Shown here: positions 446-57,579 of the stretch, piece by piece
How the letters are laid out: every line of letters begins with the position of its first letter
How positions within the stretch are numbered: the first letter of the stretch is position 1
From: an uncultured Acidobacteriota bacterium
Lineage (GTDB): Bacteria; Acidobacteriota; Vicinamibacteria; Vicinamibacterales; UBA2999
Reading direction: 5' to 3'
DNA: 64,000 nt
Assembly: GCA_963789815.1 (NCBI GenBank)
Contig: CAWBMG010000013.1
Coordinates: forward strand, 729,569-793,568
Notes under the pieces: generated by a model
The model's input: the letters and a program-made list of their open reading frames with translations, nothing else
Told to the model about the DNA's origin: nothing
Database searches by the model: none
Program-made: the position numbers and the translations under genes

Positions 446-2542
446 GTGTGGCTTCGCGCGGCTGTCGTCGTCTTGTCCGGTGTGTTGGTGTACACCAATG
501 CACTCTCGGGACAGTTTCTCTTCGACGATGAGAATGCGATTGTCACCAATTCAACTATTCGGCAACTCCAGCCTCTGACTGTACCGCTCAGTCCGCCGCG
601 CGACACGCCGGTCGCCGGACGGCCGCTCGTCAATCTCACATTTGCGCTGAACTACGCAAGCACAGGCCTTGATGTGCGGGCTTATCGCCTGACAAATCTC
701 GCAGTGCATTTGTTAGCAGGTCTCGTGCTGTTCGGCATCGTTCGGCGCAGCTTGCTAGGGCCGAAGCTGGCGAGCCACTTCGGTGCGCAATCGCTCACGC
801 TCGCTTGGGCGTGTGCGCTCGTGTGGACGCTTCACCCGTTGAACACCGAAGCCGTGAACTATTTGGCGGAGCGGACAGAGTCTCTGATGGGTCTTTGCTA
901 TCTGCTGACCGTGTACTGCGCGATTCGCGGAGTGAAGGGGTCAGGGCTCAAGGCTCAAGGCTCAGGGCTCAAGGCTCAAGGCTCAGGGCTTAAGGCTCAG
1001 GGCTCCGGGTTGTCGGCGTGGGACTTTGCGGCGGTCTTGGCGTGCACGGCAGGAATGGCATGTAAGGAATCGATGGTGACCGCGCCCTTCATCGTGGCGT
1101 TGTACGACCGCGTGTTCCTGTTCGACTCGGTGAAGGACGCTGTTCGACGGCGATGGCATGTGTATGCGGGACTTGCCGCGTCGTGGTTAGTTCTGGCGCT
1201 GCTGCTGTCCGGACAGCCGCGAACATCAGCCGGGTTTGGGTCCGGGACTGATCCCTGGACGTACTTCCTGAATCAGATGGACATCATCGTCCGGTACCTT
1301 CGGCTGAGCGTGTGGCCCCAAGGACTCGTGCTCGACTACGGGCTCCCACAGTCGCTCACACTCGCCGATGTTGTGTGGCCGGCCGGGTTCCTGACCGCTC
1401 TGGGCTTGGCCACACTCATTGCAATCCGCTATAGGCCGTTCGTCGGGTTTCTCGGGGCATGGTTCTTCATTACGCTTTCCCCGACGTCGAGCTTCGTCCC
1501 GATTGCCACCGAGGTCGGTGCCGAGCGACGCATGTATCTACCGTTGGCGGGGCTCGTGGTGTTGGCGGTTGTCGGTTCGTACGCCCTCATTGCTGCGCGC
1601 GCCGGAAGACCCACAGTCGTCGCGCCCGCCTTGCCTCGACGAACCCGCGGAGACACACCCCTCGACGACGCTCGCGAAAGTCGACGGGGGGAGTCGAGGA
1701 GCAGTCGTAGCTCGAAGAGCGCCCGTGTCTCGACGCCTCCTATGGCCGTGGCAACACGCCTGGGGATCGGAGTGCTCGTGAGCGTGTGCGCGTTGCTCGC
1801 CAGTGGGACCATCGCTCGCAACCGAGAATATCGATCGCGTCTGTCGATGGCGCAGACCATCGTTGACAGGCGCCCGCACGGCCGCGCGCACTTTCTACTT
1901 GGATCGGAGTTGGTGTCGGCAGGAGAGCACGACCGAGCGATGGCGGAGCTGCGACTCTCGGCCCGCGACTACCCCGGAGCGCATTACGCCTTGGCCACGG
2001 AGCTTCTGTTCGCGGGCCAGCTCGACGAGACGATTACCCACGCGAAGGAGTTCATCCGCCAGAGGCCGAACGACTCCGCGGTGGTCCCGGCGCGCGAGTT
2101 GCTGGCGCGCGCGCTCGGCTCGAAGGGGGACCTCGACGGGGCAGCCGAACAGTTCGCTCTGATTGTTCAGCGGGTGCCTCAGCACGCCGTTGCTCAGGCG
2201 TCTCTCGGGGATATTCGCCTGCGACAGAGACGCCTGGACGAGGCCATCAGCCACTTCGAATCGGCTCTCAAAGTTCAGCCTACTGACTCGATTCTCCTGG
2301 GGAAGCTCGGTTTGGCACTGGCCCAGGCCGGAAGGATGAGCGAGGCGACAACGGTTCTCGAACGAGCCGTGGCGGGTCGGCCAGCCGACGTCGGTCTCGC
2401 GAACATGCTAGGGCAGGCACTTGCGGCCCAAGGGCGCTACGCCGAAGCTTTGACGTATCTTCGACGAGTGGTCCAGCTCCTGCCAGGTGACGCCCAAGCC
2501 GCCCGTAACCTCTCGGCGGCCGAGAGGTTGGCCACCAAGTAG
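446..2542 (+). CDS. TPR-repeat membrane protein with an N-terminal polytopic PMT_2/DUF1736-like glycosyltransferase-type domain
   Basis: In-frame GTG at 446 within ORF 11..2542, placed after the divergent hydrolase start. N-terminus VLVYTNALSGQFLFDDENAIV plus multiple TM segments. The C-terminal third carries TPR-like repeats (AHYALATELLFAGQLDE, AVAQASLGDIRLRQRRLDEAI). Start position is uncertain. Confidence 0.75.
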   Translation: MWLRAAVVVLSGVLVYTNALSGQFLFDDENAIVTNSTIRQLQPLTVPLSPPRDTPVAGRPLVNLTFALNYASTGLDVRAYRLTNLAVHLLAGLVLFGIVRRSLLGPKLASHFGAQSLTLAWACALVWTLHPLNTEAVNYLAERTESLMGLCYLLTVYCAIRGVKGSGLKAQGSGLKAQGSGLKAQGSGLSAWDFAAVLACTAGMACKESMVTAPFIVALYDRVFLFDSVKDAVRRRWHVYAGLAASWLVLALLLSGQPRTSAGFGSGTDPWTYFLNQMDIIVRYLRLSVWPQGLVLDYGLPQSLTLADVVWPAGFLTALGLATLIAIRYRPFVGFLGAWFFITLSPTSSFVPIATEVGAERRMYLPLAGLVVLAVVGSYALIAARAGRPTVVAPALPRRTRGDTPLDDARESRRGESRSSRSSKSARVSTPPMAVATRLGIGVLVSVCALLASGTIARNREYRSRLSMAQTIVDRRPHGRAHFLLGSELVSAGEHDRAMAELRLSARDYPGAHYALATELLFAGQLDETITHAKEFIRQRPNDSAVVPARELLARALGSKGDLDGAAEQFALIVQRVPQHAVAQASLGDIRLRQRRLDEAISHFESALKVQPTDSILLGKLGLALAQAGRMSEATTVLERAVAGRPADVGLANMLGQALAAQGRYAEALTYLRRVVQLLPGDAQAARNLSAAERLATK
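938..1012. repeat. in-frame 21-nt tandem repeat encoding (GSGLKAQ)x3 plus GSGL inside the TPR membrane protein
   Basis: GGCTCAGGGCTCAAGGCTCAA units read directly. The same GGGCTCAG/AAGGCTCAG motif forms the intergenic array at 15141-15259. Confidence 0.9.
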
Positions 2543-11798: not shown

Positions 11799-12293
11799 AT
11801 GGGCATCCGTGTGGTTATGGCTCTCGTTCTGGCCGGGTCGGTTGCGACAATCGCCTGCGGGGGAGGTGCGCCTTCGAACGAAGCTCAGCCTGCGGCGGCG
11901 CCCGCAGCCTCCGCCGACGCGTCGCACACCGAGCACGCGGCCGGTCAGGGACGCGTGTTCTTCATGCAGCCAGCGAGCGGCGCGACGGTGAAGAGCCCGG
12001 TGCAGTTCGTGTTTGGCAGCGAGGGATTCGCGATTGCCGCTGTTCCGGCGGGCGAAGTCAAAGAGGTTCGTGCCGGCACGGGCCACTTCCACCTCGGCGT
12101 TGACACCGATTGCCTGCCGGTAGGACAGGCCATCCCCAAGGCCGCTCCGTGGATCCACTTCGGCGACGGCAAGAACATGATCGAGATGCAGCTCGCGCCC
12201 GGGCCGCATAAGTTCGCCGTGCAAGCTGGGGACGACCTGCACCAGACCATCGCCGGCCTCTGCGAAACGATCTCGATCACTGTGGCTGGGTAG
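11799..12293 (+). CDS. DUF4399-like lipoprotein
   Basis: AAAGGAG lies before the ATG at 11799. Signal ends in IACGG (lipobox). GHFHLGVD, WIHFGDGKNMIEMQLAPGPH and AGDDLH fit the DUF4399 pattern. Confidence 0.75.
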   Translation: MGIRVVMALVLAGSVATIACGGGAPSNEAQPAAAPAASADASHTEHAAGQGRVFFMQPASGATVKSPVQFVFGSEGFAIAAVPAGEVKEVRAGTGHFHLGVDTDCLPVGQAIPKAAPWIHFGDGKNMIEMQLAPGPHKFAVQAGDDLHQTIAGLCETISITVAG

Positions 12294-12424
12294 AGGAAAC
12301 GGAGGGGGCGGAGGGAACGGGATCACACGGAGCCACGGAGGAACGGAGATAAACAGAGAGTCTTTACCTCCGTGTCTTCGTTCCTCCGTGTGATCCCGTT
12401 CCCTCCGTCGCCTCCCTCCCCTCC
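12294..12424. repeat. long inverted repeat (GGAGGGAACGG/CACGGAG motifs) between convergent genes; the right arm lies inside the antiporter 3' end
   Basis: GGAGGGAACGGGATCACACGGAG...GGAGGAACGGAGA is mirrored by ACCTCCGTGTCTTCGTTCCTCCGTGTGATCCCGTTCCCTCC around an AT-rich centre at 12349-12366. Confidence 0.9.
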
Positions 12425-14139
12425 GCGGTCGGTGCGCCGAACAGTTCCTCTCGCACCCGCGCCCGCTCCCGGTCGATTTGATCGGGCGTCGCGCCCAGCC
12501 GGCGAAGAACGGCTTCCGTCATCGCCAACGCCACCTCGCCCTCTCCGGAAAACACCTGCTCGGCTCCCGCGCTGCGAAGCGGCGGCACCTCGCGCAGATT
12601 GACGCCGCGAACGAAGATGTGCACGTTTGGATTGAGCTCGCGTGCGCTTTTGATGACGTCTGGTGAGCCGGCGCCGGCGCCGCTGACGATGAGCGTGTCC
12701 GCGTGGCGCAAGCCCGCAGAGACCAGGATGTCCTGATACCGTGCGTCGCCGTAGATCGCGGACACACCTGCCTCGCGAAGGTTTCTGACGGCGTCCATGT
12801 TCAGCTCGACCACCGTTGGCGCGATGCCGTTCTCCTGCAGGAGCCTCGACACCGTCCGTCCCGTCGGGCCATAGCCGATGACAATCGCGCGCTCGCTCGA
12901 ATCAAGCGACGACGAGACTCCGGCGTCGGGCATCGTGGGATCCACGGCAGGCCGTCGAAACCAGCGGCGTTCCGACAACCAGTTCCCGAGCGGCTCGATT
13001 CCCTTGAATACCAGCGAGTTCAGAGTGATAGACGCGATGGCGACAGTAACGACCACATTCGTCGCTTCGTCCGGGACGATCCCGAGGGTGCGCCCGAGAG
13101 CAATCAGTATGAAAGAGAACTCGCCAACCTGTCCGCGGGACAACGACACGGTCAGGACCGTCCGGATCGGGTAGCGCATCAGCAGCAGGACGAGCGCCGA
13201 CACTGCCGGTTTGACCACTATCACGATCGCAAAGGCGCTGGCCGCAAAGGCGGAGGAGCCGACGAGCGCAGCCGGGTCGAGCAGCATACCGACGGACACG
13301 AAAAAGAGGACGGCGAACGCGTCCCGCATCGGCAGCGCTTCGGTCGCCGCGCGCAAGCTGTAGTCCGACCGGCCCACGACCATTCCCGCGAGGAAGGCGC
13401 CGAGCGCCATCGAGACTCCGAACACGGTCGCCGAGCCCACGGCAATGCCGAGTGCCAGGACGAGCACGGTGAGCGTGAACAACTCGCGCGAGCGGGTCGC
13501 CGCCACGCGGTCGAGGACCATGGGGATGATGCGACGTCCGACGATGGCGGCAAACGCGACGAGCCCGGCCACTTTCAACAGCGTCAGTGCCAGATCGACC
13601 GCGACGCGAGACGCCGAGGCGGCGGTGGCGAATGTTGGCAGGAGGACGAGCACGACGACCGTGAAGACGTCCTCGACCACGAGCCATCCGACCGCGATGT
13701 GGCCGGCAGGTGTGTGCAGTTCGCGGTTGTCCGAGAGCACGCGCACGAGAACCACGGTGCTTGCGACAGAGAGCGCGAGGCCGAAGACAATGGCGCCCGG
13801 CCACCCCCACCCGAACGCGTGCGCCGCGAGTGCGCCGAGGGCCGTCGTGGCCGCGCCCTGCACGATGGCGCCGGGAATGGCCGTGCGGCGAACTGCGAGC
13901 AGTTCCTCGAGATGAAACTGCAACCCGACGCCGAACATCAGCAGGACGACGCCGAGCTCGGCAAGCTGCTCCGCGAGCCCCGCGTTGGCCACAAATCCCG
14001 GCGTATACGGACCCACGACGACGCCGGCGATCAAATAGCCGACGATGGGGGAGAGACCCAGCCGCTGCGTGATGTAGCCGAAGACAAGGCCAGCCCCGAG
14101 GCCCCCCGCCAGCGTAAGCACGAGTTCGACTCCATGCAT
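12364..14139 (-). CDS. monovalent cation:proton antiporter-2 (CPA2, Kef/YbaL-like) with C-terminal TrkA-N/RCK domain
   Basis: Start taken at MHGVELVLTLAGGLGAGLVFGYITQRLGLSPIVGYLIAGVVVGP. About 12 TM segments, then IVIGYGPTGRTVSRLLQENG (Rossmann GxGxxG). Confidence 0.85.
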   Translation of the reverse strand: MHGVELVLTLAGGLGAGLVFGYITQRLGLSPIVGYLIAGVVVGPYTPGFVANAGLAEQLAELGVVLLMFGVGLQFHLEELLAVRRTAIPGAIVQGAATTALGALAAHAFGWGWPGAIVFGLALSVASTVVLVRVLSDNRELHTPAGHIAVGWLVVEDVFTVVVLVLLPTFATAASASRVAVDLALTLLKVAGLVAFAAIVGRRIIPMVLDRVAATRSRELFTLTVLVLALGIAVGSATVFGVSMALGAFLAGMVVGRSDYSLRAATEALPMRDAFAVLFFVSVGMLLDPAALVGSSAFAASAFAIVIVVKPAVSALVLLLMRYPIRTVLTVSLSRGQVGEFSFILIALGRTLGIVPDEATNVVVTVAIASITLNSLVFKGIEPLGNWLSERRWFRRPAVDPTMPDAGVSSSLDSSERAIVIGYGPTGRTVSRLLQENGIAPTVVELNMDAVRNLREAGVSAIYGDARYQDILVSAGLRHADTLIVSGAGAGSPDVIKSARELNPNVHIFVRGVNLREVPPLRSAGAEQVFSGEGEVALAMTEAVLRRLGATPDQIDRERARVREELFGAPTAEGREATEGTGSHGGTKTRR

Positions 14140-14157: not shown

Positions 14158-14334
14158 CAACTCCCGATTCCCAATTCCCAACTTCCAAGCCAGATGAAAC
14201 CACACGCTCGAATGGAGGCAATGGGAGTTGGACGAGCGAACAATTGGGAGTTGGACGAGCGAGCAATTGGCAGTTGGACTAGCGAAGTAGTTGGGAGTTG
14301 GACAAGCGAAGTAGTTAGGAGTTGGGTGTGGGTG
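14158..14334. repeat. CCAACTCCC/GGGAGTTGG family element: short left arm plus 4.5 tandem 23-24-nt units
   Basis: Units GGGAGTTGGACGAGCGAACAATT (14223), GGGAGTTGGACGAGCGAGCAATT (14246), GGCAGTTGGACTAGCGAAGTAGTT (14269), GGGAGTTGGACAAGCGAAGTAGTT (14293) and AGGAGTTGGGTG (14317). The opposing CCCAATTCCCAACTTCC arm is at 14158-14190. Confidence 0.9.
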
Positions 14335-15135: not shown

Positions 15136-15140
15136 CTCTT

Positions 15141-15259
15141 AGGGCTCAGGGCTCAGGGCTCAGGGCTCAAGGCTCAGGGCTCAGGGCTCAAGGCTCAGGG
15201 CTCAAGGCTCGGACTCACGGCTTAGCCGGCTTAAGCCCTGAGCCGTGAGCCCTCAAGCC
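15141..15259. repeat. GGGCTCAG/AAGGCTCAG tandem array with an opposing CCCTGAGCC arm (hairpin element)
   Basis: About 9 tandem 7-8-mers at 15141-15211, then GCTTAAGCCCTGAGCCGTGAGCCCTCAAGCC. Same motif as the in-frame repeat at 938-1012. Confidence 0.9.
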
Positions 15260-15260
15260 G

Positions 15261-17488: not shown

Positions 17489-17509
17489 TCAGCCTCCAAA
17501 AGACTCGTC

Positions 17510-17608
17510 AACTCCCAACCACTATCGCTTGTCCAACTCCCAACTCCCAATTGCCTTCGAGCGTCCTTGGGAGTTGGGCCAGCGTCAGAAGTTGGGAGTT
17601 GGAAGTTA
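17510..17608. repeat. CCAACTCCC/GGGAGTTGG family inverted-repeat element
   Basis: CAACTCCCAACC...GTCCAACTCCCAACTCCCAATTG is opposed by CTTGGGAGTTGGG...GTTGGGAGTTGGAAGTT. Confidence 0.9.
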
Positions 17609-24666: not shown

Positions 24667-24698
24667 GACCTTCCCTGGGCGCGATCGCACTGACGATG

Positions 24699-25001
24699 GT
24701 CGGTGCGATCGCGCCGCTTGTCGGTGCAAATCTCCTAACGCGGTCGGTGCAATCGCACGGCTTGTCGGTGCAATCTGGCGCACGCGTGTTGGTGCAATTC
24801 CGCTGACGCTCGTCGGTGCAAGGCGAACCACTGACGCAGGTCGGTGCCATCTTGGCGCCGCGTGTCGGTGCGATCCGTCTCGCGTTTGGAGGTGCAATCC
24901 GGGTGCAATCGCGCAACTTGTCGGTGCTGTCCGACGTGGCATGTCGGTGCAAGCAGGCTGACGCCTGCTGGTGTAAGGGAACTAACGCTTGTCGGTGCCG
25001 C
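24699..25001 (+). repeat. tandem array of about 14 units, period 21-28 nt (two shorter), conserved core GTCGGTGCAAT
   Basis: Core starts at 24699, 24720, 24743, 24764, 24788, 24812, 24840, 24864, 24889, 24902, 24920, 24943, 24970 and 24991. The last unit encodes the final residues (GTDKR) of the adjacent gene. Confidence 0.95.
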
Positions 25002-25377
25002 GCTGCTTTCGGGCGACGTCCAGTCGATTGGCCCTGAGGCTGCCTATCGCGGCATACAGGCGGCGCGTCAGCGTTCGGATTGGGGCCAGTTCCTCTGCGG
25101 AGACGTAGCCCTTCAGCTGGGCGCTCCGCAGCGTGTCGGTCACCTCGTTCAGCGACCGGCGGGATACTTCCAAGAAGCGCGCGAACTCGCGCGGCGACTC
25201 GCACCCGAATCCCTCTGCAATATTGCGGCAGATCGAATCGATCGCGTCTTCGGCCTGGCCTCGATGTTTGAAGTCGCGTGAGAACTGTGGGCGCCGGGTG
25301 AACGCGAAAGCGGCAACTCTCAGCTCGTCGGCGAGCTGCCACGCGATGAGCTCCGTGTAGTGCCGCGCACCTGCCAT
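24982..25377 (-). CDS. four-helix-bundle protein (23S rRNA intervening-sequence protein family, PF05635/TIGR02436-like)
   Basis: YTELIAWQLADELRVAAFAF, AIDSICRNIAEGFG, REFARFLEVSRRSLNEVTDTL matches the family pattern (W-Q-x-A, NIAEG, F-L-x-x-S-x-x-S-x-x-E). Start could be M at 25377 or 25398. Confidence 0.8.
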   Translation of the reverse strand: MAGARHYTELIAWQLADELRVAAFAFTRRPQFSRDFKHRGQAEDAIDSICRNIAEGFGCESPREFARFLEVSRRSLNEVTDTLRSAQLKGYVSAEELAPIRTLTRRLYAAIGSLRANRLDVARKQRGTDKR

Positions 25378-25485
25378 ACGGAGGTGATGGCAGAACACAT
25401 GCCAATGGAACCGCGCGCTTCGTCAACAACTTGCGGCCACCATCGCGCAAAATCTCCAATCCCGCGGCGACCACGGTTGGCAGGT

Positions 25486-25716
25486 TTTGCACCAACAAGC
25501 GCTAGTTCAAATTGCACCGACCTGCGTCAGTGAATAGCACCGACAATTTGCAGGCTTGCACCGACAAGCAAGATAGATCGCACCGACGAGCAAGGTCAGC
25601 TTGCACAGTCTTCCGTCAGCCCGCTCGCACCGACATGCAACATCGGATCGCACCGACCAGCCGTGCGATTGCACCGACAAGTTGTGCGATCGCACCTGCT
25701 GCACGTCGGATCGCGC
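25486..25716 (-). repeat. tandem array of about 10 units of the same repeat in opposite orientation (ATTGCACCGAC on the plus strand)
   Basis: GCACCGAC-type cores at 25489, 25514, 25537, 25558, 25580, 25603, 25627, 25650, 25671 and 25692, spaced 21-25 nt. The array ends 1 nt before the MFS stop codon. Confidence 0.95.
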
Positions 25717-27090: not shown

Positions 27091-27195
27091 GCGCTCCTAG
27101 GCGTGTGAGGTGGGCTGTCGGGGTGTTATGTCAGTGCTAAGATTCACGACGTGCGAAGTATACTCGGCACCCGGATTCTCCTTCGCGAGGGTTCC

Positions 27196-28161
27196 ATGAA
27201 GTACGTCATGCGAGCCGCTATCACTGGGTACGCTTTCCTGGCGGCGACGCTCCTGAGCGTTCCCGCATCGGCTCAAGTCGACTTGGCAGGTGAGTGGGCT
27301 CCTGTGCGCGGCGAGGACAACACGGGCAACCCGGAGCTTGGCGATTGGGTCGGGATCCCGATGAACGATGCGTCACGTCTGCGGTCGTCCGCGTGGGACG
27401 CATCCATCTACACTTTGCCAGAGTGGCAGTGCCGCCCGCACGGCAGCGCCTACATCTCGAGGGGACCTTCGCAGCTCAAGATCTGGAAGGAAGTCGATCC
27501 GGTTTCACGAGAGACCTCGGCTTGGCATTTCGAGTGGCTCCGATCCGTCGATCGCCCCATCTACATGGACGGGCGTCCGCATCCGTCAGCGAACGCCGCG
27601 CACACATGGGCGGGGTTCTCGACCGGCGAGTGGATGGGCAACACGCTCCGCGTTCGCGTGACCCATCTGAAAGAGGAGTATCTGCGGCGCAACGGGGTGT
27701 TTCACAGCGACAAGATCGAAGTCACCCAGTATTTGATCCGCCGAGGTAACTACCTCACCTTCGTGGTCGTCGCCTACGACCCGGTCTACCTGACCGAACC
27801 GATCATTCGGAGCACCGAGTACCAACTTGCGCTCAGCCAGCAGCTTCCTCCATACCCGTGCACCGTGGTGACGGAAGTCGATCGACCGAAGGGCGTTGTG
27901 CCCCACTATCTGCCAGGCACGAACCCCGACGTCGCCTGGTTCGCGAATCGTTACAACATTCCGCTCGACGTCATCATGGCTGGCGCCGCAAATATGTATC
28001 CGGAGATTCGAACGAAGATTCCGCGATCGAGGGGCGGCTTCGGGCCCGAGTTGCCTCCGCCCGCCGCCCAGCCAGCCCAGCGTCCTTCGACCCGCCCAGT
28101 GGCACAAGGCTCAGGACGCCCTGAGGCTACCCAAGGGCGCCGCGCCGGAGCGGGGCAATGA
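27196..28161 (+). CDS. uncharacterised secreted protein, paralogue family type B
   Basis: Start at MKYVMRAAITGYAFLAATLLSVPASAQ. Core IYMDGRPHP, GEWMGNTLRVRVTHLKEEYLRRNGVFHSD and DPVYLTEP is related to 29374..30165 and more distantly to type A. Confidence 0.75.
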   Translation: MKYVMRAAITGYAFLAATLLSVPASAQVDLAGEWAPVRGEDNTGNPELGDWVGIPMNDASRLRSSAWDASIYTLPEWQCRPHGSAYISRGPSQLKIWKEVDPVSRETSAWHFEWLRSVDRPIYMDGRPHPSANAAHTWAGFSTGEWMGNTLRVRVTHLKEEYLRRNGVFHSDKIEVTQYLIRRGNYLTFVVVAYDPVYLTEPIIRSTEYQLALSQQLPPYPCTVVTEVDRPKGVVPHYLPGTNPDVAWFANRYNIPLDVIMAGAANMYPEIRTKIPRSRGGFGPELPPPAAQPAQRPSTRPVAQGSGRPEATQGRRAGAGQ

Positions 28162-32247: not shown

Positions 32248-32255
32248 TCGTGACA

Positions 32256-32335
32256 AATCCCAACTCCCAACTCCCAATTCCCAAAAGTCGGGGTGGGCCC
32301 TGCTTGGGCGTTGGAGGTTGGAAGTTGGGAGTTGC
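32256..32335. repeat. CCAACTCCC/GGGAGTTGG family inverted-repeat element
   Basis: AATCCCAACTCCCAACTCCCAATTCCC is opposed by GGAGGTTGGAAGTTGGGAGTTGCC. Confidence 0.9.
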
Positions 32336-35267: not shown

Positions 35268-35372
35268 GATTTACGAATCGACGAATTTACGTATTTACGA
35301 ATTGATTGGAGAATTCGCCAGCGACGCATTTCATCGCGATTCGACGATTCGTAGATTCGTCAATTCGTCAAT
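35268..35372. repeat. ACGAAT/ATTCGT family inverted-repeat element overlapping the 3' end of the TPR-like gene
   Basis: TTACGAATCGACGAATTTACGTATTTACGAATTG is opposed by CGATTCGACGATTCGTAGATTCGTCAATTCGTCAAT. Confidence 0.85.
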
Positions 35373-35968
35373 CTCTTGACGTGCACTCGCGCGACCATGT
35401 GCATATAGCCTCCGGCGCCTGCGTATCGATCGGCGGCGGCATTCGTGATGTGCTCGCGCGCGCGTCGGCCATCGCCAAGCGCCTCGTAGTACAGGCCGAC
35501 GTAGAGCTGCGCGTAGAACTCAGCGCCGGGTCGCGAGCCGCCGGCGGCAAGCACCTGCGCGGGCTCCAGCGTCCCGCGGAGCATCTCGTAAACCTGTCGC
35601 ATCGGGACGCGCGCGTCTGGACCGACCGGCAGAAGCGCCGCCTTGGCGCGCGCGGGTGATTCCTCGCGAGCCACGCAGAGAAAGTGCCACGCGGCATTCT
35701 CCACATCGTCCGGATTCACGGTGCGATGCGCTTCGAACTGGAGGCGGCAGTCGCGGTAGCGGCCGGCGTAGTAGAGCGCGATCCCACGTTGCCACAGCTG
35801 CGGCATCACCTGGGGCGCGATCTTGACGAGCTCATCGAAGCTCGCCACCGATTCGGCGATGCGACCGCGCTCGAACTCCGCCACGGCGCGATCCAAGAGT
35901 GCGCGTGGGTCGGATGGAGCTTGAGCTGCAAGCGTGGCGCCGAGAGCAACCAGTATCAGACTCAGCAT
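35360..35968 (-). CDS. secreted TPR-like (NlpI-like) protein
   Basis: Start taken at MLSLILVALGATLAAQA, because the upstream extension is a GCCCTACG-family hairpin. Helical-repeat content (GRIAESVASFDELVKIAP, ALYYAGRYRDC, YVGLYYEALGD). Confidence 0.6.
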   Translation of the reverse strand: MLSLILVALGATLAAQAPSDPRALLDRAVAEFERGRIAESVASFDELVKIAPQVMPQLWQRGIALYYAGRYRDCRLQFEAHRTVNPDDVENAAWHFLCVAREESPARAKAALLPVGPDARVPMRQVYEMLRGTLEPAQVLAAGGSRPGAEFYAQLYVGLYYEALGDGRRAREHITNAAADRYAGAGGYMHMVARVHVKRLTN

Positions 35969-36018
35969 GGGCCAGGCCGGTCCCAAAGGACCGGCCCTAC
36001 GAGCACGGAAGGATGATT

Positions 36019-37262: not shown

Positions 37263-37325
37263 GGGGTCAGATCTTGAATTTTGCAAAGCAGGGCGTTCGC
37301 AGACGCAAAAAGCACGATCTGACCC
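37263..37325. repeat. GGGGTCAGATCTTGA-type palindromic element (diverged copy)
   Basis: GGGGTCAGATCTTGAATTTTGC ... GCAAAAAGCACGATCTGACCC. Related to the elements at 47214 and 57517. Confidence 0.85.
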
Positions 37326-37350
37326 TCCCGATGGTGACAGAATCCTTCCC

Positions 37351-42704: not shown

Positions 42705-42706
42705 TC

Positions 42707-43030: not shown

Positions 43031-43035
43031 TTCCC

Positions 43036-45788: not shown

Positions 45789-45791
45789 GCC

Positions 45792-47228
45792 ATGCTTCAT
45801 CTTCCCGTCCTCCGCTGGGGACAACCCTATACAAGCATGGAGGTCGACCAGGTCGTGCACTTTGCGACCGGTGAGCCGATCGCGAGCGTGAGCCGCGCCA
45901 ACGGTGGCCTCGTACAACGCGACATGCGAAAGGCTTCGCGCGCCCGCGAGGTGCTGCGTGAGATCCCGATCGACGACCTCATCGCTCGCGTGGCGAAAGC
46001 CGGCGATCTCTATATGAACAGCACGTTGCCGATGGGTGACGGCACGCAGTCGGCAGACGAATTCGTGCGTGCGCAATCGGCCACCACGGGCCTTCCCGAA
46101 CACATGTGCCGCGCGAACATGAAGAAGAACGCGTTCGTGCTGAGCGAGATGCGCAACATCCTCGCATCGCTGACGCGCGGCCTCTCGCTGGACGTGCTGA
46201 CGACCGGGTACGGTGAGGAGCGCGGCGTTCCGATCAGTTATCAGGCCCAGAGCCCTGTGCTGGGCCTTGTGCTGCCCTCGAACTCACCTGGCGTGCACAC
46301 GCTCTGGCTGCCCATCATCCCGATGCAGCTCGGCTTGGTGCTCAAGCCCGGGCCCCAGGAGCCATGGACGCCGTATCGGATGGCAGAAGCGTTCTTCGCA
46401 GCCGGCGTTCCCCGTGAGGCAATTTCTATCTACCCCGGAGAGGCCGATGTTGGTGCGGCCGTGCTCGACGCGGCACCCCGTAGCCTCATCTTTGGTGGCA
46501 CGGCGACCGTCGATCGCTACCGAGGCAATCCGCGTGTGCAGGCGCACGGGCCAGGGTTTTCAAAGATCCTTTTGGGCGACGATCAGGTGGATCGTTGGGA
46601 GAGCTACCTCGATGTGATGGTCGAGAGCGTCTTCATCAACAGTGGCCGGAGCTGTATCAACTGTTCGGGTATCTGGGCGAGTCGCCACACGCGCGAGATT
46701 GCCGAGGCGCTGGCCCGTCGGTTGGCGGATGTCCGTCCGTTGCCGCCCGAAGATCCCAATGCGGGCCTGGCGGCGTTCACCGTGCCCGGAGTAGCGGAGG
46801 CGATTTCACAGTCCGTTGATGCGGACCTTCAGGCCCCAGGCGTTGTCGATGTGACGGCGAAGTACAGAAACGAAGCCCGTGTCGTCAAGCAGGGTCGCGC
46901 CGATTACCTGCTACCGACCGTCGTGCATTGCGACTCGCCCGATGCGGCGGTGGCGAAGAAGGAGTTCATGTTTCCGTTCGTGACGGTGGTCGAATGTCCC
47001 GAGGTACGGATGCTCGAGGCGATCGGTCCAACGCTCGTGTGCAGCGCCATCACGTGTCAGCCCGAGTTCCGTCGGCGCTTGGTGGATGCCGTCCACATCG
47101 ATCGCCTGAACCTGGGCCCCGTGCCGACGACTCGATTGAACTGGCTCCAACCGCACGAGGGGAACATCGTCGAGTTCTTGTTCCGTGCACGGGCGTTTCA
47201 AACAGCAGAGATGGGGGTCAGATCTTGA
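45792..47228 (+). CDS. aldehyde dehydrogenase superfamily protein (LuxC acyl-CoA reductase-like)
   Basis: VLKPGPQEPWTP, IFGGTATV and FINSGRSCINCSG (catalytic Cys context) are ALDH-fold motifs. 478 aa, immediately downstream of the adjacent adenylating enzyme. The last 5 codons and the stop lie inside a palindromic repeat. Confidence 0.7.
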   Translation: MLHLPVLRWGQPYTSMEVDQVVHFATGEPIASVSRANGGLVQRDMRKASRAREVLREIPIDDLIARVAKAGDLYMNSTLPMGDGTQSADEFVRAQSATTGLPEHMCRANMKKNAFVLSEMRNILASLTRGLSLDVLTTGYGEERGVPISYQAQSPVLGLVLPSNSPGVHTLWLPIIPMQLGLVLKPGPQEPWTPYRMAEAFFAAGVPREAISIYPGEADVGAAVLDAAPRSLIFGGTATVDRYRGNPRVQAHGPGFSKILLGDDQVDRWESYLDVMVESVFINSGRSCINCSGIWASRHTREIAEALARRLADVRPLPPEDPNAGLAAFTVPGVAEAISQSVDADLQAPGVVDVTAKYRNEARVVKQGRADYLLPTVVHCDSPDAAVAKKEFMFPFVTVVECPEVRMLEAIGPTLVCSAITCQPEFRRRLVDAVHIDRLNLGPVPTTRLNWLQPHEGNIVEFLFRARAFQTAEMGVRS

Positions 47229-47304
47229 TTTTTGCGTGCGGTGGCAGCTTCTTTTGGACTGAGTCAGGAGGTCCCGCCGCGCGCAAAAATCAAGATCTGA
47301 CCCC
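47214..47304. repeat. GGGGTCAGATCTTGATTTTTGCG palindromic element (23-nt arms, 45-nt loop)
   Basis: Left arm 47214-47236, right arm CGCAAAAATCAAGATCTGACCCC 47282-47304. Confidence 0.95.
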
Positions 47305-47318: not shown

Positions 47319-48629
47319 ATGAAGATCCTCTCGATTACGGCGGGCGCGGCGGGGATGTACTGCGGGAGTTGTTTTCGGGACAATGCGCTCGCCGCCGAGC
47401 TGATGTCGCGGGGCCACGACGTCACGCTTGTCCCCGTTTACACGCCGACGCGCACGGACGAGCCCAACGTGAGCCAGCGTCGCGTGCTCTTTGGCGGCAT
47501 CAGCGTGTACCTGCAGCAGCATTCTCGCTTGTTCCGGCGGCTGCCGCGCGTCGTGGATCGAATGTGGGACGCCCCCGGCGTCATCAAGGCATTTGCCAAC
47601 CGGTCGGCCACGACCGACCCGACGCTGCTCGGCGATCTCACGATCTCCACGCTGCAGGGCAAAGACGGCGTCCTTGGCCGCGAGTTCGAGAAGCTCGCGG
47701 AGTGGATGCGGGACGAGCCTGTGCCAGACGTCATCAACCTCCCGAACTCGATGCTCATCGCCCTGGCGGCGCCGCTGCGTGAAGCCTTCGGACGCCCGGT
47801 GTGCTGCACGCTCCAGGGCGAAGAGCTGTTCTTGAACGGCTTGCACTCGCCCTATCGTGAACGCGCCATTGAGTTGATCCGCAGTCACGTACCACACGTC
47901 GACCGCTTCATCGCCGTCAGCGACTACTGCGCCAGGTTCATGGCCGAGTTCCTTCGCATCCCCGAACGCCGCATCTCGGTCGTGCCACTCGGCATCAATG
48001 TCGCCGGCTACGAGCGACGCCAGAGCGAGAGCGACACGTTCCGCGTCGGCTACTTCGCCCGTGTCTCGCCGGAGAAGGGCTTGCATGTGCTGGCCGACGC
48101 GTACGTCCGACTCCGGCAGCGCGCACCGAAGGCGCGAATGCGACTGGATGCGGCCGGGTACATCTCGCCCGCGCAAGAAGGCTATTTGACCGACGTTCGC
48201 GGTGTGCTCGAGCGGGCGGGGCTGGGCGGAGAGTTCACCTATCGCGGCGAGATCGACCGGGCCCACAAGATCACGTTTCTTCAAGGCCTGGATGTGCTTT
48301 CGGTTCCCGCCACCTACGATGAGCCGAAGGGCATTTTCCTGCTGGAGGCGATGGCGTGCGGTGTCCCAGTCGTTCAGCCTCGGCGTGGCGCGTTTATCGA
48401 GATCGTCGAACGCACAGGTGGCGGCGTACTGGTGCGACCAGACGATCCAGCCAGTCTCGCGGACGCGTTGTACGATCTCGCGCAGGATCGCGTGAAGACG
48501 ACGGCGTTGGGCCAGCTCGCCTTCGACGCGGTGCACGCGCGCTACACGATCGCGAAATCCGCAGACGAGTTGCTCGACGTGTATCGTGGCGTTACATCAT
48601 CGATGATCGATGAACGAATGACCGGATGA
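47319..48629 (+). CDS. GT4-family glycosyltransferase (GT-B fold)
   Basis: MKILSITAGAAGMYCGSCFRDN N-terminus. C-terminal EPKGIFLLEAMACGVPVV (E-x7-E-type motif). Confidence 0.85.
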   Translation: MKILSITAGAAGMYCGSCFRDNALAAELMSRGHDVTLVPVYTPTRTDEPNVSQRRVLFGGISVYLQQHSRLFRRLPRVVDRMWDAPGVIKAFANRSATTDPTLLGDLTISTLQGKDGVLGREFEKLAEWMRDEPVPDVINLPNSMLIALAAPLREAFGRPVCCTLQGEELFLNGLHSPYRERAIELIRSHVPHVDRFIAVSDYCARFMAEFLRIPERRISVVPLGINVAGYERRQSESDTFRVGYFARVSPEKGLHVLADAYVRLRQRAPKARMRLDAAGYISPAQEGYLTDVRGVLERAGLGGEFTYRGEIDRAHKITFLQGLDVLSVPATYDEPKGIFLLEAMACGVPVVQPRRGAFIEIVERTGGGVLVRPDDPASLADALYDLAQDRVKTTALGQLAFDAVHARYTIAKSADELLDVYRGVTSSMIDERMTG

Positions 48630-48713
48630 AATCATCGATGAACGATGATCGATGATCGGATGATTTTTCATCGATGATTTGAGATCAATCATCGGTCATC
48701 GTTCATCGTTCAT
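48595..48713. repeat. GATGATCGATGA family element overlapping the glycosyltransferase 3' end
   Basis: CATCATCGATGATCGATGAACGAATGACC ... ATCATCGATGAACGATGATCGATGATCGGATGA ... CAATCATCGGTCATCGTTCATCGTTCAT. It encodes the terminal SSMIDERMTG of the GT. Confidence 0.9.
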
Positions 48714-48715
48714 AG

Positions 48716-49405
48716 ATGGGAAGTATGCTGACCGTCTCCAACCTCACCAAGCAGTACCCATCGCCCGCCGGGCCGCTGACCGTGCTCTCAGACGTGTCCC
48801 TGTCGCTGCAGCCAGGTGACGCGGCAGCGATCATGGGACCGTCGGGCAGCGGCAAGAGCTCGCTCCTCTACGTGCTCGGTGCGCTCGAACCGCCTTCCGC
48901 CGGGAGTGTCACGCTCGGAGGCGTCAACCCATTCGGCCTCCGCGCCACGGAGCTCGCTGATTTTCGCAATGCCAGGGTCGGTTTTGTTTTTCAGGACCAC
49001 TGCCTTCTCCCGCAGTGCTCGGTGCTCGAGAACGTGTTGGTCCCGACTCTGGTTGCGCGTGGTGCCGGTGGCGGAGCTGGAGAGGACGCGCGTCGCGCGC
49101 AGACGCTCGTCGAGCAAGTCGGCCTGACAGGGCGGAGCGACCATCGGCCAGGTCAGTTGTCGGGGGGCGAGCGGCAGCGCGTATCGGTGGCCCGCGCGCT
49201 CATTCGCCAGCCAGACCTCCTGTTGTGCGATGAGCCCACCGGGAATCTCGACCAGGCGTCGGCGTCCATCGTTGCGTCGCTCTTGCTGGACTTGCATCGG
49301 CAGCAGCGGAACATCCTGATCGTGGTGACGCACAGCGCGAAGCTGGCAGCGGAGTTCCCGATCCGGTTCGAGATCGTCGATTCGCATCTGCATCGAGTGT
49401 CGTGA
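48716..49405 (+). CDS. ABC transporter ATP-binding protein (LolD/MacB-type)
   Basis: Walker A GPSGSGKSS, signature LSGGERQR, Walker B LLLCDEPTGNLD, H-loop VTHS. Confidence 0.9.
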   Translation: MGSMLTVSNLTKQYPSPAGPLTVLSDVSLSLQPGDAAAIMGPSGSGKSSLLYVLGALEPPSAGSVTLGGVNPFGLRATELADFRNARVGFVFQDHCLLPQCSVLENVLVPTLVARGAGGGAGEDARRAQTLVEQVGLTGRSDHRPGQLSGGERQRVSVARALIRQPDLLLCDEPTGNLDQASASIVASLLLDLHRQQRNILIVVTHSAKLAAEFPIRFEIVDSHLHRVS

Positions 49406-51072: not shown

Positions 51073-54000
51073 ATGCTTCGTTTTCTCATTCTTCGCAGCC
51101 TGACCTACTACTGGCGCACGAACGTTGCCGTCGTTCTGGGCGTGGCCACGGCGGTGGCGGTTCTGGCAGGCGCGCTGCTCGTCGGTGAGTCGGTGCGGGG
51201 CAGCCTGCAGGACCTTGTCCTGCAACGGTTGGGTCGAACCGACATCGTCCTGACCTCCGCAGGGTTTTTCCGCGAACAGCTCGCGACAGATATCGAAACT
51301 CAATCGGAATTCCCAGCCACCTTCAGCGGTCTCAGCCCGCTCGTCATTGCTCAAGGAGTGGTCACGGCTCAAGAGAGCGGACGACGGGTGGGGCAAGTGT
51401 TGGTTTATGGGATCGACGACCGCTTCTGGCGGTTTCATGGAGTGAACGGCGTGTCAGGCCCCAGCGACCGCGAGGCTCTACTCAGCCCGGCGTTAGCCTC
51501 GCAGCTTCGTCTCGAGCAGAAGGACGCCGTTCTCGTCCGGGTGCAACGTCCAACCGACGTTCCCCTCGAGTCGCTCCATGGCCGCCGCGACGACGTGGGT
51601 CGCACGCTGCGCCTGATCGTTCGCGCCGTCGTCCCGACTGGCCTGCTTGGTGAGTTTTCCTTGGCGCCCCAGCAGGCCGACGTGAAGGCGGTGTTCGTGC
51701 CGCTGTCACGCCTTCAGCAGGAGCTCGAGGTCGAAGGGCGTGTGAACACGCTTCTTGTGGCAGCTCGCGCCGGCCGCGAAGCTGGCGCATCGGAGGCCTT
51801 CGAACTGCTCGTCAACGCGCGCGCCTCGCTCGAGGACGTCGGCCTGACCGTGCGCGCGCTCGAGGATCGTCATGCTCTCGTCGTGGGGTCGGCGGCAGGC
51901 GTGCTCGAAGACCGCCAGGCATCCGCGGTTCTACAGGCGCTCAGTGGCACCGGTATGAGCGGCCAACCACTGTTCACCTATCTCGCGAACACGATTCGAC
52001 TTGGAGGTGAAGAGGAAGGGGAGGAACGGGAGGCCAAGGAGAAAGAGGAAAGGGAGAAGGGGGAAAGGGGGAAGGGGGAAAGGGAGACGGAGAGCGAAGG
52101 CAGTCATGAGCTCCCATACTCGCTGGTCACGGCCATTGATCTGCGCGCCGTGTCCCCGTCGGTCTCGACGTCGCCTGATGCCGACGGCCGACCACCCATT
52201 CTGCTGAACACGTGGGCCGCTTCCGATCTCAAGGCTCGCCCGGGGGACGTGGTAACGATGACTTACTACGTGTGGGCAGAGCCCGGGCTACTCGTGACGC
52301 GCAACACCGAGTTTCACCTGGCCGGTGTCGTGCCGATTGAGGCCGCCGACCGTGACTTCGCACCGGCCTTTGCCGGCATCACGGACTCCGTCTCTCTTTC
52401 CGACTGGGACCCGCCCTTTCCGATCGACTTGCGTCGCGTTCGTCCCGCGGACGAGGACTATTGGAAGCGCTATCGCACGACGCCGAAGGCGTTTGTGCCT
52501 CTCGAAGTCGGCCAGCGGCTCTGGCGGTCGCGCTATGGCGCGCTCACATCCGTGCGCGTGACACCCGCGGCCGGCCAGTCGTTCGAGGACTCGCGGCAGG
52601 AACTCGCGACCCGGCTGCGAAGCGCGATCGATCCCGTATCGACTGGTATGGCCGTCCGTGCTGTGCGCGCAGACGGACTGACTGCCTCGCACGGCGCGAC
52701 GGACTTCGGCGCCTACTTCACCTATTTCAGCTTCTTTCTGGTGGTTTCAGCCCTGTTGCTCGCGGCGCTCTTCTTCAGGCTCGGCGTCGAACAGCGTGTG
52801 CGCGAGGTTGGCCTGCTTCGCGCAGTCGGGTTCGGTCCAAGGGCAGTCAGGCGGCTGTTCTTGGGAGAAGGCCTACTTCTCGCGATAGTCGGGAGCATGC
52901 TGGGAGTAGCCGGTGCGATCGCGTACGCCGGGTTGATGATGGCGGCCCTCAGGTCCTGGTGGGTGGATGCCGTTGGCACAACGTCACTCACGCTTCACAT
53001 CTCAGCGACGTCGCTGCTGACCGGTGCCGTCGGCGGCATCGCGGCCGCGGTTGTCTGCATCTGGTGGACGTTGCGGGCGCTTGGGCGCATTTCGGAACGG
53101 AGTCTCCTCGCCGGAAATGTGACACTCGACGACAACTTCCAACTTCCAACTTCCCAACTCCCAAGGAACCCAGCCACCCAGCTACCTAGCTATCTCGCTA
53201 TCCGCCAGCGGCGATTACTTCTCGCGACGATCGCGCTCGTCATCATCGGCATAGCGCTGCTGCTGTCTGCCGCGGCGGGCAGAGCGGCTCCGGCAGGGGC
53301 CTTCTTTGGCGCCGGCTCATCGCTTCTCGGCGCGGCGCTCTGTGTGAGTCTGTTCATGCTCCGGCGGCAGCCTCGACACCCAATCGAAGGGCGCGGCTGG
53401 CTTCCGGTTCTTCGTCTGGGCCTTCGAGGCGCCACGTATCGTCCCGGTCGTAGCGTCTTGTCGATTGCGGTGATCGCCTCGGCCACGTTCATCCTCATTT
53501 CCGTGGACGCCTTTCGACGCGACGGCCGGCTCGCCGATGGCGGCCGGCAGTCCGGCGTTGGTGGGTACTCCCTCATCGTCGATACGCTGCTCCCCGTGGT
53601 CAACGACCCCAACACAATCGAGGGTCGCAACGCGCTGAGCCTCTCGGCCCTGGACGCCGCCGTCACCATCGAGCCGTTCCGCCTACTGCCCGGAGACGAT
53701 GCGAGCTGTTTGAATTTGTACGAGCCGACGAACCCGCGCATTCTGGCGGCGCGCGACCGGTTCATCGATGACGGACGCTTCGTGTTCAGCGACTCCCTTG
53801 CCTCGAGTGGTGCGGAACGGGCGAATCCATGGCTGTTGTTGCGGCGTCGCGAAACCGACGGCGCGATTCCCGTAGTCGCCGATGCCAACTCGATGACGTA
53901 CGTCCTCCACCGCCAACTGGGCCAAGACATCGTCCTGCGGCGCGGGACAGGAGAAGTGCGTTTGCGACTCGTTGGCGCATTGCGCGACAGCATCTTCCAG

Positions 54001-54576
54001 GGAGAGCTGTTGATGTCGGAGTCCAATTTCCTGCGCGTGTTCCCGGAGCAAGAGGGTTATCGGGTGCTGCTGGTCGAAGACCGAATGGGACGAACCGATG
54101 AGGTGGCGAGAACGATCGAGGGAGCGTTGTTGGATCTTGGAGCCGACGCGACGGGGACAGGCGAGCGCCTGGCTCAGTTTCACAGGGTCGAGAACACGTA
54201 TCTGTCCACGTTTCAGACGCTCGGAGGCCTGGGGCTGTTGCTCGGTACGGTTGGGCTTGCGGCGGTCCTTCTTCGTAACGTGCTGGAGCGGCGTCGAGAG
54301 CTGGCGCTGCTCGGCGCCGTCGGTTATCGTCGAAGTCACTTCACGTCAATGATCGTGGTTGAGAACATGCTCCTTGTCGGCTGCGGCCTCGTCTCAGGGG
54401 CATCGTGTGCATTGTTGGCGATTGCGCCTGCCGCGGCAGAACGGGGCAGCGCGCCATTCACGACTGGCGCTGCGCTGTTGCTGGTTGGTGTGATGGCGAC
54501 TGGGCTGCTCGCATCGATCGTCGCGATTCGTGCCGCGATCCACGCGCCGCTTCTCGAGTCGCTGAGGTCTGAGTAG
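51073..54576 (+). CDS. large ABC transporter permease with duplicated FtsX-type domains
   Basis: Start at [44 protein letters not shown]. Two TM4 bundles are separated by large periplasmic domains. Contains two repeat-derived in-frame insertions. Confidence 0.8.
   Translation: [1167 protein letters not shown]
52003..52100 (+). repeat. 98-nt polypurine tract inside the permease CDS encoding [33 protein letters not shown]
   Basis: I counted 6 pyrimidines in 98 nt. GGGGAAAGG-type units are related to the GGAGGGAACGG intergenic family. Confidence 0.9.
53134..53200. repeat. CCAACTTCC/CCAACTCCC plus CCAGCTACCTAGCTA motifs read in frame inside the permease CDS
   Basis: AACTTCCAACTTCCAACTTCCCAACTCCCAAGGAACCCAGCCACCCAGCTACCTAGCTATCTCGCTATC encodes [23 protein letters not shown]. 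Confidence 0.9.
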
Positions 54577-54652
54577 CTAGGTTGCTAGGTAGCTGGGTAG
54601 CTGGGGTGTTTGGGAGTTGGACAAGAATTAGTTGGGAGTTGGGAGTTTCCGA
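54577..54652. repeat. TAGCTGGGTAGCT and GGGAGTTGG motif block
   Basis: GCTAGGTTGCTAGGTAGCTGGGTAGCTGGGG followed by TTTGGGAGTTGGACAAGAATTAGTTGGGAGTTGGGAGTT. Confidence 0.9.
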
Positions 54653-57506: not shown

Positions 57507-57516
57507 CGGTGCCAAC

Positions 57517-57579
57517 GGGGTCAGATCTTGATTTTTGCGCGAAGGAGACTTGCAGGCGCAAAAATCAAGATCTGACCCC
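57517..57579. repeat. GGGGTCAGATCTTGATTTTTGCGC palindromic element (24-nt arms, 15-nt loop)
   Basis: Arms at 57517-57540 and 57556-57579 are perfectly complementary. Confidence 0.95.

Follow-up and report, generated by a model that had tools for sequence, protein, structure and literature searches.

Intergenic heptamer repeats are read in frame inside membrane-protein genes and at gene ends in a Vicinamibacterales chromosome segment

Introduction

Can the short repeats that fill the spaces between bacterial genes also be read as protein? This question is raised by a gene for a membrane protein that resembles protein O-mannosyl-transferases (PMT), carries C-terminal TPR repeats, and contains at 938-1012 an array of 7-nucleotide (nt) units that also occurs in intergenic DNA. 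The gene lies in a stretch of 64,000 nt from an uncultured Acidobacteriota bacterium (contig CAWBMG010000013.1), here called the window, which has a G+C content of 62.9% and whose best named protein matches point to the Vicinamibacterales, phylum Acidobacteriota.

An original prediction, made from the letters of the window alone, held that motifs filling its intergenic gaps also lie at three sites inside open reading frames (ORFs) without breaking the frame and supply the C-termini of five further proteins. It offered two readings, namely that insertions are tolerated only when they preserve the frame and fall in loops or termini, or that the genes are being remodelled by repeat expansion. It also proposed alignment with orthologues, mapping on AlphaFold models and a search for length polymorphism, and regarded homologues with the same segments, or other gene models, as evidence to the contrary. 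We find that the gap-filling motifs do occur inside ORFs with the frame kept: six of the eight sites hold at the DNA level, a seventh in part and the last marginally. Both readings are supported, as two halves of one process. The case of junk-like DNA reshaping proteins is clear, and it is not unprecedented.

Results

A heptamer array encodes part of a loop of the PMT/TPR protein

446..2542, + strand: PMT-like membrane protein with C-terminal TPR repeats, 698 amino acids (aa) (ORF, Pfam TPR families, homologues)
938..1012, + strand: in-frame array of about nine heptamers (TCAGGGC/TCAAGGC), read as (GSGLKAQ)x3 + GSGL
15141..15253, no strand: intergenic AGGGCTC/AAGGCTC array with its inverted partner, a hairpin (Tandem Repeats Finder, TRF; inverted repeats I10-I19; fold)

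The 446-2542 protein has 3923 homologues, some of which are labelled protein O-mannosyl-transferase or TPR protein. TRF detects the array at 941-1009 with a period of 7 (9.3 copies) and with a period of 21 (3.3 copies, 93% matches), and homology to the protein is present on both of its flanks in the same frame, as expected for the in-frame repeat that had been predicted. A 26-nt exact match links the array to intergenic DNA at 15136-15260. Taking 300 random coding segments of equal length as the control here and for the other intergenic matches, this length was equalled by 2/300 segments (mean 9.9 nt), and these two probably span the short gap between two genes. Direct-repeat family D1 likewise connects 915-1026 with the array at 15141-15253, whose hairpin folds at -64.7 kcal/mol (z -5.9).

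The repeat is specific to this lineage, since GSGLKAQ was found in none of the 29 aligned PMT/TPR homologues (50-59% identity). The span between a conserved IR and a conserved W comprises about 9 residues in most homologues and 31 in the window protein, so that the repeat contributes about 21-22 aa. Other inserts occupy the same loop in several homologues; in the P0014 gene the insert is, at the DNA level, an in-frame palindromic GGGGTCAGACCCC-type element. The AlphaFold model (mean predicted local distance difference test, pLDDT, of 83) places the repeat in a disordered loop, as coil with pLDDT <50 (residues 173-186) between helices 140-161 and 191-206. A cytoplasmic location is predicted for this loop by the positive-inside rule and by where the DD motif lies.

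Shifting the array by 21 nt gives a higher identity (0.94) than shifting it by 7 nt (0.855), as would suit a repeat kept for its peptide. In-gene repeats might then be selected functional modules, flexible or charged linkers such as GSGLKAQ and the E/K/G/R block described below, or new tails that tune membrane proteins, recruited for the benefit they bring, a proposal also made for the amino-acid tandem repeats of Borgs. However, the cognate intergenic array at 15141 is also periodic at 14 and 21 nt. Further evidence on this explanation, which we consider unlikely, comes from the permease below.

The same repeats make up the intergenic DNA

About 7.5% of the window is intergenic in a hand-made gene model. 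Nearly all tandem arrays sit there, and according to TRF and a repeat listing, short repeats make up almost all of this intergenic DNA. The 7-nt families are CAACTCC, AGGGCTC/AAGGCTC, ATCATCG/GATGAAC, CTCCGTG/CTTCGTG and GGTAGCT, and are accompanied by some 8-nt units and by a GTCGGTGCAAT-type unit of 21-23 nt. The arrays consist of at least three head-to-tail 7-nt units, as in the short tandemly repeated repetitive (STRR) heptamers of cyanobacteria, and TRF finds those with period 7 at 941-1005 (9.3 copies), 15141-15222 (11.9), 53133-53164 (4.4), 42600-42646 (6.9) and 48599-48664 (9.3), among others; about 20 of the roughly 22 in the window are intergenic.

Arrays mostly come in pairs, the second being the inverted copy of the first, and the spacer folds as a long hairpin. 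Ten intergenic elements were folded and gave z values of -3.8 to -11.3 against shuffled sequences, whereas the in-gene arrays have no inverted partner and are one-armed and unstructured (z -1.3 for 938-1012; 0.07 and 0.46 for the others). At the confirmed sites the exact intergenic matches are 26, 15, 24, 15, 20 and 13 nt long, compared with about 8-10 nt for random coding segments. No Rfam family was matched anywhere in the window. A consensus terminator scan returned 17 sites where 12.6 were expected, with only 1 inside an array, which rules out the hairpins as classical intrinsic terminators.

About eight loci in the 64 kb, including 17509-17601, 32254-32334, 45659-45800 and 55922-56015, belong to the CAACTCC / GGGAGTTG family, which other Vicinamibacterales genomes share (for instance L066, 11965-11996). 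Its 3' arms (GGGAG, GGAG) often stop a few bases before start codons, and the hairpins could mask ribosome-binding sites.

The intergenic bias extends to related genomes. In 1.34 Mb of related loci, mostly from Acidobacteriota, no tandem-repeat period is as common as 7, with 241 arrays against 204 of period 9 and 54 of period 6. When about 0.93 Mb of GC-rich DNA from these loci and the window was considered, 91/94 strong period-7 arrays lay outside ORFs, whereas arrays with periods divisible by three were divided more evenly (71 outside, 55 inside). The ORF rule was deliberately strict and misses true in-gene arrays (53133 in the window; L010, L020 and L066), so that 3/94 in-gene arrays is a lower bound. 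The heptamer-array habit is thus phylum-wide and not peculiar to the window genome. Across loci L003-L162 (about 1.6 Mb), varied heptamer arrays directly follow stop codons at many homologous loci, for example CAGCTAC (L093), GCACCTG (L104) and GTCGATT (L085).

Of the two possible orientations, the in-gene arrays also have the one that stays open in each of the three reading phases. AGGGCTC is open, and its complement contains TGA; AGCTACC is open, and GGTAGCT contains TAG.

A composite element forms the linker of a double FtsX permease

51073..54576, + strand: double FtsX / MacB-like permease, 1167 aa, starting MLRFLILRSL (Pfam FtsX, MacB_PCD)
53133..53200, + strand: composite element, a CAACTTC/CAACTCC array joined to an AGCTACC-type array, read as NFQLPTSQLPRNPATQLPSYLAI (TRF, codons, linker alignment)
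54574..54650, no strand: intergenic inverted copy of the composite element, starting at the permease stop codon (alignment; TRF 54569-54605 and 54630-54647)
52003..52100, + strand: purine-rich tandem repeat of 15-nt and 9-nt units, encoding EEGEEREAKEKEEREKGERGKGERETESEG (TRF, homologue alignment)

The two remaining internal sites are in one permease gene, for which the earlier gene model is wrong. ORF 49624-54576 had been taken as a single FtsX permease, and its apparent 1650 aa are due to a frameshift: relative to contig L001, one additional A at 50893 puts an MFS transporter gene out of frame, and the ORF continues into the permease, whose true start is at 51073. The ORF is therefore a frameshifted MFS gene followed by the 1167-aa permease. 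Full-length homologues measure 1110-1174 aa, and L001 has the same gene call. The extra A is either a sequencing error or the mark of a pseudogene. A gene-model artefact is ruled out for the three internal sites themselves, since homology runs in frame on both sides of each.

At 53133-53200, (CAACTTC)x3 and one CAACTCC are followed by an AGCTACC-type stretch, in the hypervariable linker that joins the two FtsX halves. The repeat assigned to 53134-53200 by the original prediction is borne out by this heptamer array, by a 15-nt exact intergenic match (equalled by 3/300 random coding segments) and by an inverted copy: 53154-53200 and 54574-54620 are complementary at 85% over 47 nt, lie 1373 nt apart and flank the second half of the permease gene. 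The inverted copy indicates that 53133-53200 is a copy of the composite element and not merely the product of local slippage. The two copies might pair as RNA over a long range or permit DNA inversion, or they might be left over from the way the element spread. In the permease model the linker (residues 661-708) has low pLDDT or is coil; this model is of poor overall quality (mean pLDDT 54.8) and was used for local secondary structure only.

The same linker carries other heptamers in other genomes, namely CAACTCC (L066), CAGTCGG (L010), CAAATCC (L020), CGAACGT (L021) and CTTCGCG (L009), and an 8-nt array in L011. Several Vicinamibacterales homologues, placed on separate branches by a quick tree, carry NSQLPT-like peptides at this linker; these are CAACTCC read as protein, and in P0122 (80-82% identity) the insert survives in decayed form. 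The linker also carries RLKADTTY, SGFSRK and KAGHY peptides in homologues, which, judging from back-translation of the peptides, are probably translated palindromic repeats. Homologues with the same segment had been named as a sign of ancestry rather than repeat origin. Such homologues exist, but their NSQLPT-like peptides are themselves repeat-derived and other lineages carry unrelated heptamers, so the objection applies only in part.

The linker bears on two rival explanations. If in-gene repeats were functional modules, one would expect their hosts to be membrane or envelope proteins, as they are here and in Borgs (PMC9879509), and their sequences to persist, as the linker insert has, partly decayed, in P0122 and on other branches. 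Instead, unrelated sequences stand at the same sites across lineages (other heptamers, REP-like peptides or nothing), the majority of homologues have no insert, insert lengths vary freely and the positions are the least conserved.

The second explanation invokes no transfer: each in-gene repeat would have grown by local slippage from a chance seed, and the likeness to intergenic arrays would reflect a shared bias towards 7-nt units. The differing heptamers found at one linker in different lineages agree with this, as do the permease block 52003-52100, which has no intergenic family match, and the array at the permease stop codon, which begins on a conserved C-terminus. Polymerase slippage has moreover been proposed for the over-representation of heptamers in bacteria (Mrazek et al. 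2007, in the form in which PMC4692102 and PMC4679880 cite it). A purely local origin is nevertheless decidedly unlikely, as one heptamer, with the same two unit variants mixed, is found at 941 and at 15141-15222, 14 kb apart; CAACTCC arrays occupy about eight loci in 64 kb and occur in other genomes; two different arrays, joined as a 47-nt composite, recur together as an inverted copy; and a palindromic element, described below, is dispersed and shows presence/absence polymorphism.

A polymorphic tandem repeat in the periplasmic domain of the permease

The second permease site, 52003-52100, inserts about 30 aa into the periplasmic domain (15-nt unit, 88% matched by TRF). In the AlphaFold model it is a low-pLDDT excursion (residues 313-343), flanked on each side by a confidently predicted beta strand of that domain. 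The E/G/K/R block is missing in every homologue of <=69% identity, which read 'R-GDREIPYSL' at this place, and is shorter, about 10 aa, in P0122, the closest non-identical homologue. A genuine tandem repeat within the permease is therefore present, as had been predicted, but its assignment to an intergenic motif is unsupported: the longest intergenic match is 11 nt, no better than random coding DNA (78/300). On these comparisons we treat the block as a lineage-specific in-gene tandem repeat rather than an intergenic motif.

The block is exactly one 15-nt unit shorter in L001, a metagenome contig 99.2% identical to the window, and so supplies the length polymorphism that had been sought. Only four indels separate the window from L001 over the 9 kb compared; one is this 15-nt unit and one a whole palindromic element, and a TT length difference is also seen.

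Repeat-length change between near-identical strains would also be expected of contingency loci, in which gain or loss of a 7-nt unit would switch a membrane protein off or on, like the phase variation that simple sequence repeats bring about in pathogens. The heptamer unit is not a multiple of three, about nine near-identical copies are present in the PMT/TPR gene, and the neighbouring MFS gene carries a frameshift, though outside any repeat. However, the sole polymorphism observed is in frame (15 nt), and no frameshifted allele was seen in the 9 kb compared between the window and L001. The in-gene arrays are imperfect mixes of two unit variants with a best period of 21 nt, and the linker arrays of the permease, at 3-5 copies, are short and have decayed in relatives. 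Moreover, phase variation by simple repeats is not known as a habit of free-living soil bacteria. We regard contingency loci as highly improbable here.

Repeats supply the ends of several genes

12293..12423, no strand: hairpin with 61-nt arms between convergent genes (inverted repeat I1; fold -95.5 kcal/mol, z -11.3)
12364-14136, - strand: Na+/H+ exchanger-TrkA_N antiporter gene (Pfam Na_H_Exchanger and TrkA_N)
48596..48719, no strand: ATCATCG/GATGAAC array hairpin (TRF; inverted repeats I7, I8 and I21-I24; fold -60.1 kcal/mol, z -4.6)
24982..24999, - strand: GTDKR* end of a 23S_rRNA_IVP four-helix-bundle gene (codons; PF05635; arrays on both sides)
35337..35369, no strand: imperfect 8-nt array 3' of a TPR-like gene (35360-36022, - strand; TRF, codon view)

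The clearest gain of residues is in the antiporter, whose tail was correctly traced to the right arm of an inverted repeat. This arm, 12363-12423, is 61 nt long and encodes about the last 20 codons. The window protein has 23 residues beyond the conserved '...RERARVREELF', whereas 77 metagenome homologues mostly have 1-11. By this comparison, the antiporter has truly gained roughly 12-22 aa.

In the GT4 glycosyltransferase (47319-48629), the residues SSMIDERMTG and the stop codon are written by the 5' arm, 48596-48629, of a hairpin whose 3' arm extends to the ATG of the next gene (48716). The tail matches the intergenic array at 42594-43035 exactly over 20 nt (0/300 random segments), in agreement with the repeat origin proposed for it. 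It adds no length, however: after the conserved 'DVYR', homologues have 8-18 unconserved residues and the window protein 13, so the tail appears to be the replacement of a variable tail of normal length and not an addition. In some relatives (proteins P0255, P0311 and P0338), glycosyltransferase and downstream ABC ATPase form a single fused protein, and in the window an 86-nt repeat hairpin lies between the two genes.

The four-helix-bundle gene ends in five codons and a stop that correspond to one unit of the flanking GCACCGACAAG array. The predicted origin of GTDKR is upheld by a 13-nt match to the array at 24667-24981 (0/300), a DNA match being the evidence in this case. This gene (24982-25398, - strand) has on each side about 315 nt of inverted arrays of GTCGGTGCAAT-type units (24667-25716), and the whole resembles a cassette with long composite terminal repeats.

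The KRLTN tail of the TPR-like protein is marginal. The stop and about two codons do fall within the array at 35337-35369, but the match to intergenic DNA was not above chance in the DNA comparison (234/300).

A palindromic element ends the ALDH-like gene and is polymorphic

47214..47304, no strand: palindromic element GGGGTCAGATCTTGATTTTTGCG...CGCAAAAATCAAGATCTGACCCC (inverted repeat I3; fold -69.1 kcal/mol, z -11)
57507..57579, no strand: second copy of the palindromic element (indel relative to L001; fold z -8.7)
37263..37326, no strand: third, more diverged copy, between divergent genes (inverted repeat I25; pattern match; direct-repeat families D18 and D19)

The last predicted tail belongs to an aldehyde-dehydrogenase-like (ALDH-like) gene (45792-47228). 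With its first 15 nt, which are identical to the other copies, the palindrome at 47214 writes the final four codons of this gene and the TGA stop, so that the source of the tail was rightly identified, with four codons and a stop rather than five. The protein ends 'TAEMGVRS*', and homologues have 2-10 variable residues after 'FLFRARAFQ'; as in the glycosyltransferase, alignment suggests replacement of a variable tail of normal length and not an addition.

The palindrome (GGGGTCAGATCTTGATTTTTGCGC...GCGCAAAAATCAAGATCTGACCCC; the GGGGTCAGATCTTGA element) is present in the window as several dispersed copies with terminal inverted repeats, three in all, with five exact 15-nt arms against 0.08 expected. 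Its 57507 copy is a presence/absence polymorphism: 70 nt at 57507-57576 are missing from L001, which is otherwise 99.2% identical. The lack of this copy in L001 through assembly collapse of the hairpin is possible. CTGAC occurs at both junctions, which fits a target duplication or a microhomology-mediated deletion. Among 164 related loci, no copy of the palindrome GGGTCAGATCTTGA was found. The element behaves as mobile DNA and looks like a young, lineage-restricted element akin to miniature inverted-repeat transposable elements (MITE) or repetitive extragenic palindromes (REP).

Discussion

How in-gene repeats may arise and persist

The intergenic bias of the arrays, the one-armed and unstructured state of those inside genes, and their open orientation fit a repeat-prone genome under a selective filter. 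We therefore favour, with a probability of about 0.72, a genome prone to forming repeats combined with selection for lengths divisible by three, for stop-free orientation and for permissive sites. Occasionally a one-armed copy would land, or grow, inside a coding sequence. It would survive only if the net gain were a multiple of three, as with nine heptamers (63 nt) or with 15-nt or 21-nt units, if its orientation gave no stop codon in any of the three reading phases of the 7-nt unit, and if it lay in a structurally free loop or linker; otherwise selection would purge it. Surviving inserts would be translated as disordered low-complexity loops and would then drift, or change in length by in-frame slippage. 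At gene ends, a hairpin that abuts or overlaps the 3' end would overwrite a non-conserved tail and provide the stop, as in the glycosyltransferase, ALDH-like and four-helix-bundle genes, while in the antiporter a hairpin arm would be read through to the next stop, giving a longer protein.

The starting points of this scheme are observations: the identity of the repeats, their in-frame position, their absence from homologues and their location in loops, together with the polymorphism of one unit and the presence or absence of one palindrome. The direction of events, insertion or local expansion, would follow from them less directly, as would the near-neutrality of the inserts. Transfer would be favoured by the sharing of unit variants, the dispersal of families and the second copy of the composite element; local seeding would be favoured by the array that begins at the conserved LRSE-stop of the permease and by the lack of an intergenic match for the E/G/K/R block.

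Several points weigh against the scheme. The scheme takes the inserts to be neutral. Over the 9 kb shared at 99.2% identity, every heptamer array has the same number of copies in the window and in L001. The block at 52003-52100 is not tied to any intergenic family and may be an independent product of slippage within the gene. Given the NSQLPT-like peptides on several branches and the decayed insert of P0122, the permease linker insert at 53133-53200 must be old, or recurrent, or both, and is therefore not a recent event. Finally, the permease C-terminus LRSE is conserved, yet its stop codon falls in an array, and some arrays may thus have been seeded from a gene end and not the reverse.

A more active process can also be imagined, in which Acidobacteriota would make and spread 7-nt arrays and hairpins, possibly with the help of an enzyme and beyond passive slippage, seeding loops, linkers and tails in envelope and transport proteins as a chromosomal counterpart of Borg repeats; the in-gene arrays might double as frame-switching contingency sites. 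We rate this as improbable, and keep it in view because of the inverted duplication of the composite element, the repeated colonisation of one linker and the dominance of period 7 in related genomes.

Relation to known repeats

Three groups of known repeats are close to those of the window. The first includes Rickettsia palindromic elements (RPE), ERIC and BOX, which PMC10969869, where it cites Ogata et al. 2000, presents as small, dispersed, hairpin-forming elements that also occur in ORFs, in frame and in a manner compatible with the protein fold. Like RPE and MITE, the window palindrome overlaps a gene, at the ALDH-like 3' end, and is polymorphic for presence, and a related-looking palindrome lies in frame in the PMT/TPR loop of P0014. 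An internal in-frame palindrome, the hallmark of RPE, is found solely in that P0014 gene; in the window only the ALDH-like 3' end is overlapped. RPE are moreover one family of about 100-150 bp with a conserved peptide, whereas the window contains mostly 7-nt tandem arrays of many unit sequences, with one-armed copies in genes. The sole possible sign of transposition in the window is the 5-nt CTGAC at one junction pair.

The second group is that of the in-ORF repeats of Borgs, which keep the frame, evolve fast, arise independently in homologues and lie in disordered regions of membrane or extracellular proteins; Borg tandem repeats can also begin in the end of an ORF (PMC9879509). The in-gene repeats of the window are likewise in disordered regions (PMT/TPR residues 173-186; permease residues 313-343 and 661-708, the latter two from the poor model). 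However, in-ORF units of Borgs are perfect, A-rich and divisible by three, while the basic unit here has 7 nt, gives a 7-aa repeat through its three phases, is imperfect (93% matches for the 21-nt super-unit, 88% for the 15-nt unit) and is carried by a bacterial chromosome. Moreover, about half of Borg repeats lie in ORFs, whereas among the heptamer arrays considered here the share is a few per cent.

The third group comprises known heptamers: cyanobacterial STRR, GGGAATC of Xanthomonas, GGGGAYT of Nostoc and TAACTGA of Beggiatoaceae. They are strongly intergenic and strain-variable, some form inverted pairs, and they often lie <50 bp from a stop codon or overlap it (PMC4692102, PMC4679880). 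The window arrays share the 7-nt unit, the intergenic location, the inverted pairs and the position at stop codons. Those reports describe one or few motif families per genome in other phyla, whereas many coexist in the window (CAACTCC, AGGGCTC, ATCATCG, CTCCGTG, GGTAGCT and others). A full-text literature search returned no account of such repeats for Acidobacteriota, which is not proof of absence. What is new relative to the heptamer precedents is the in-frame coding copies and their comparison among homologues; the underlying principle is already known.

Implications for evolution and annotation

The inserts constitute a natural experiment on the positions of membrane proteins that tolerate insertion, and indicate that non-coding repeats are able to supply new loops and tails in an abundant and little-studied soil phylum. 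The heptamer-array hairpins and whatever makes them, which appear undescribed for Acidobacteriota within the literature searched, are the more interesting subject.

For annotation, low-complexity peptides such as NSQLPT and GSGLKAQ in Acidobacteriota proteins look like translated intergenic repeats and not domains, as SGFSRT, RLKADTTY and KAGHY do on back-translation, and long ORFs can be inflated by frameshift or by repeat read-through (49624-54576; N-terminal extensions at 14158, 32318, 35269 and 54632). Mechanical ORFs are extended 5' through arrays or a REP-like hairpin at 14158-14186, 32311-32334, 35269-35303, 35974-36001 and 54630-54647, and yield peptides such as GIGNRELK, MRRWRILQSIRKYVNSSIRK and FRARRAGPLGPAWP. 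Better starts with Shine-Dalgarno-like sequences are found just downstream, and these extensions are probably untranslated repeats, able to inflate automatic annotation.

A small hairpin of the AGGGCTC family (CAAGGCTCAGGACGCCCTGAGGCT) is located at 28105-28133, within the low-complexity C-terminal tail (…AQGSGRPEA…) of the gene 27151-28161. This may be one more case of a repeat inside a gene, beyond the sites originally predicted.

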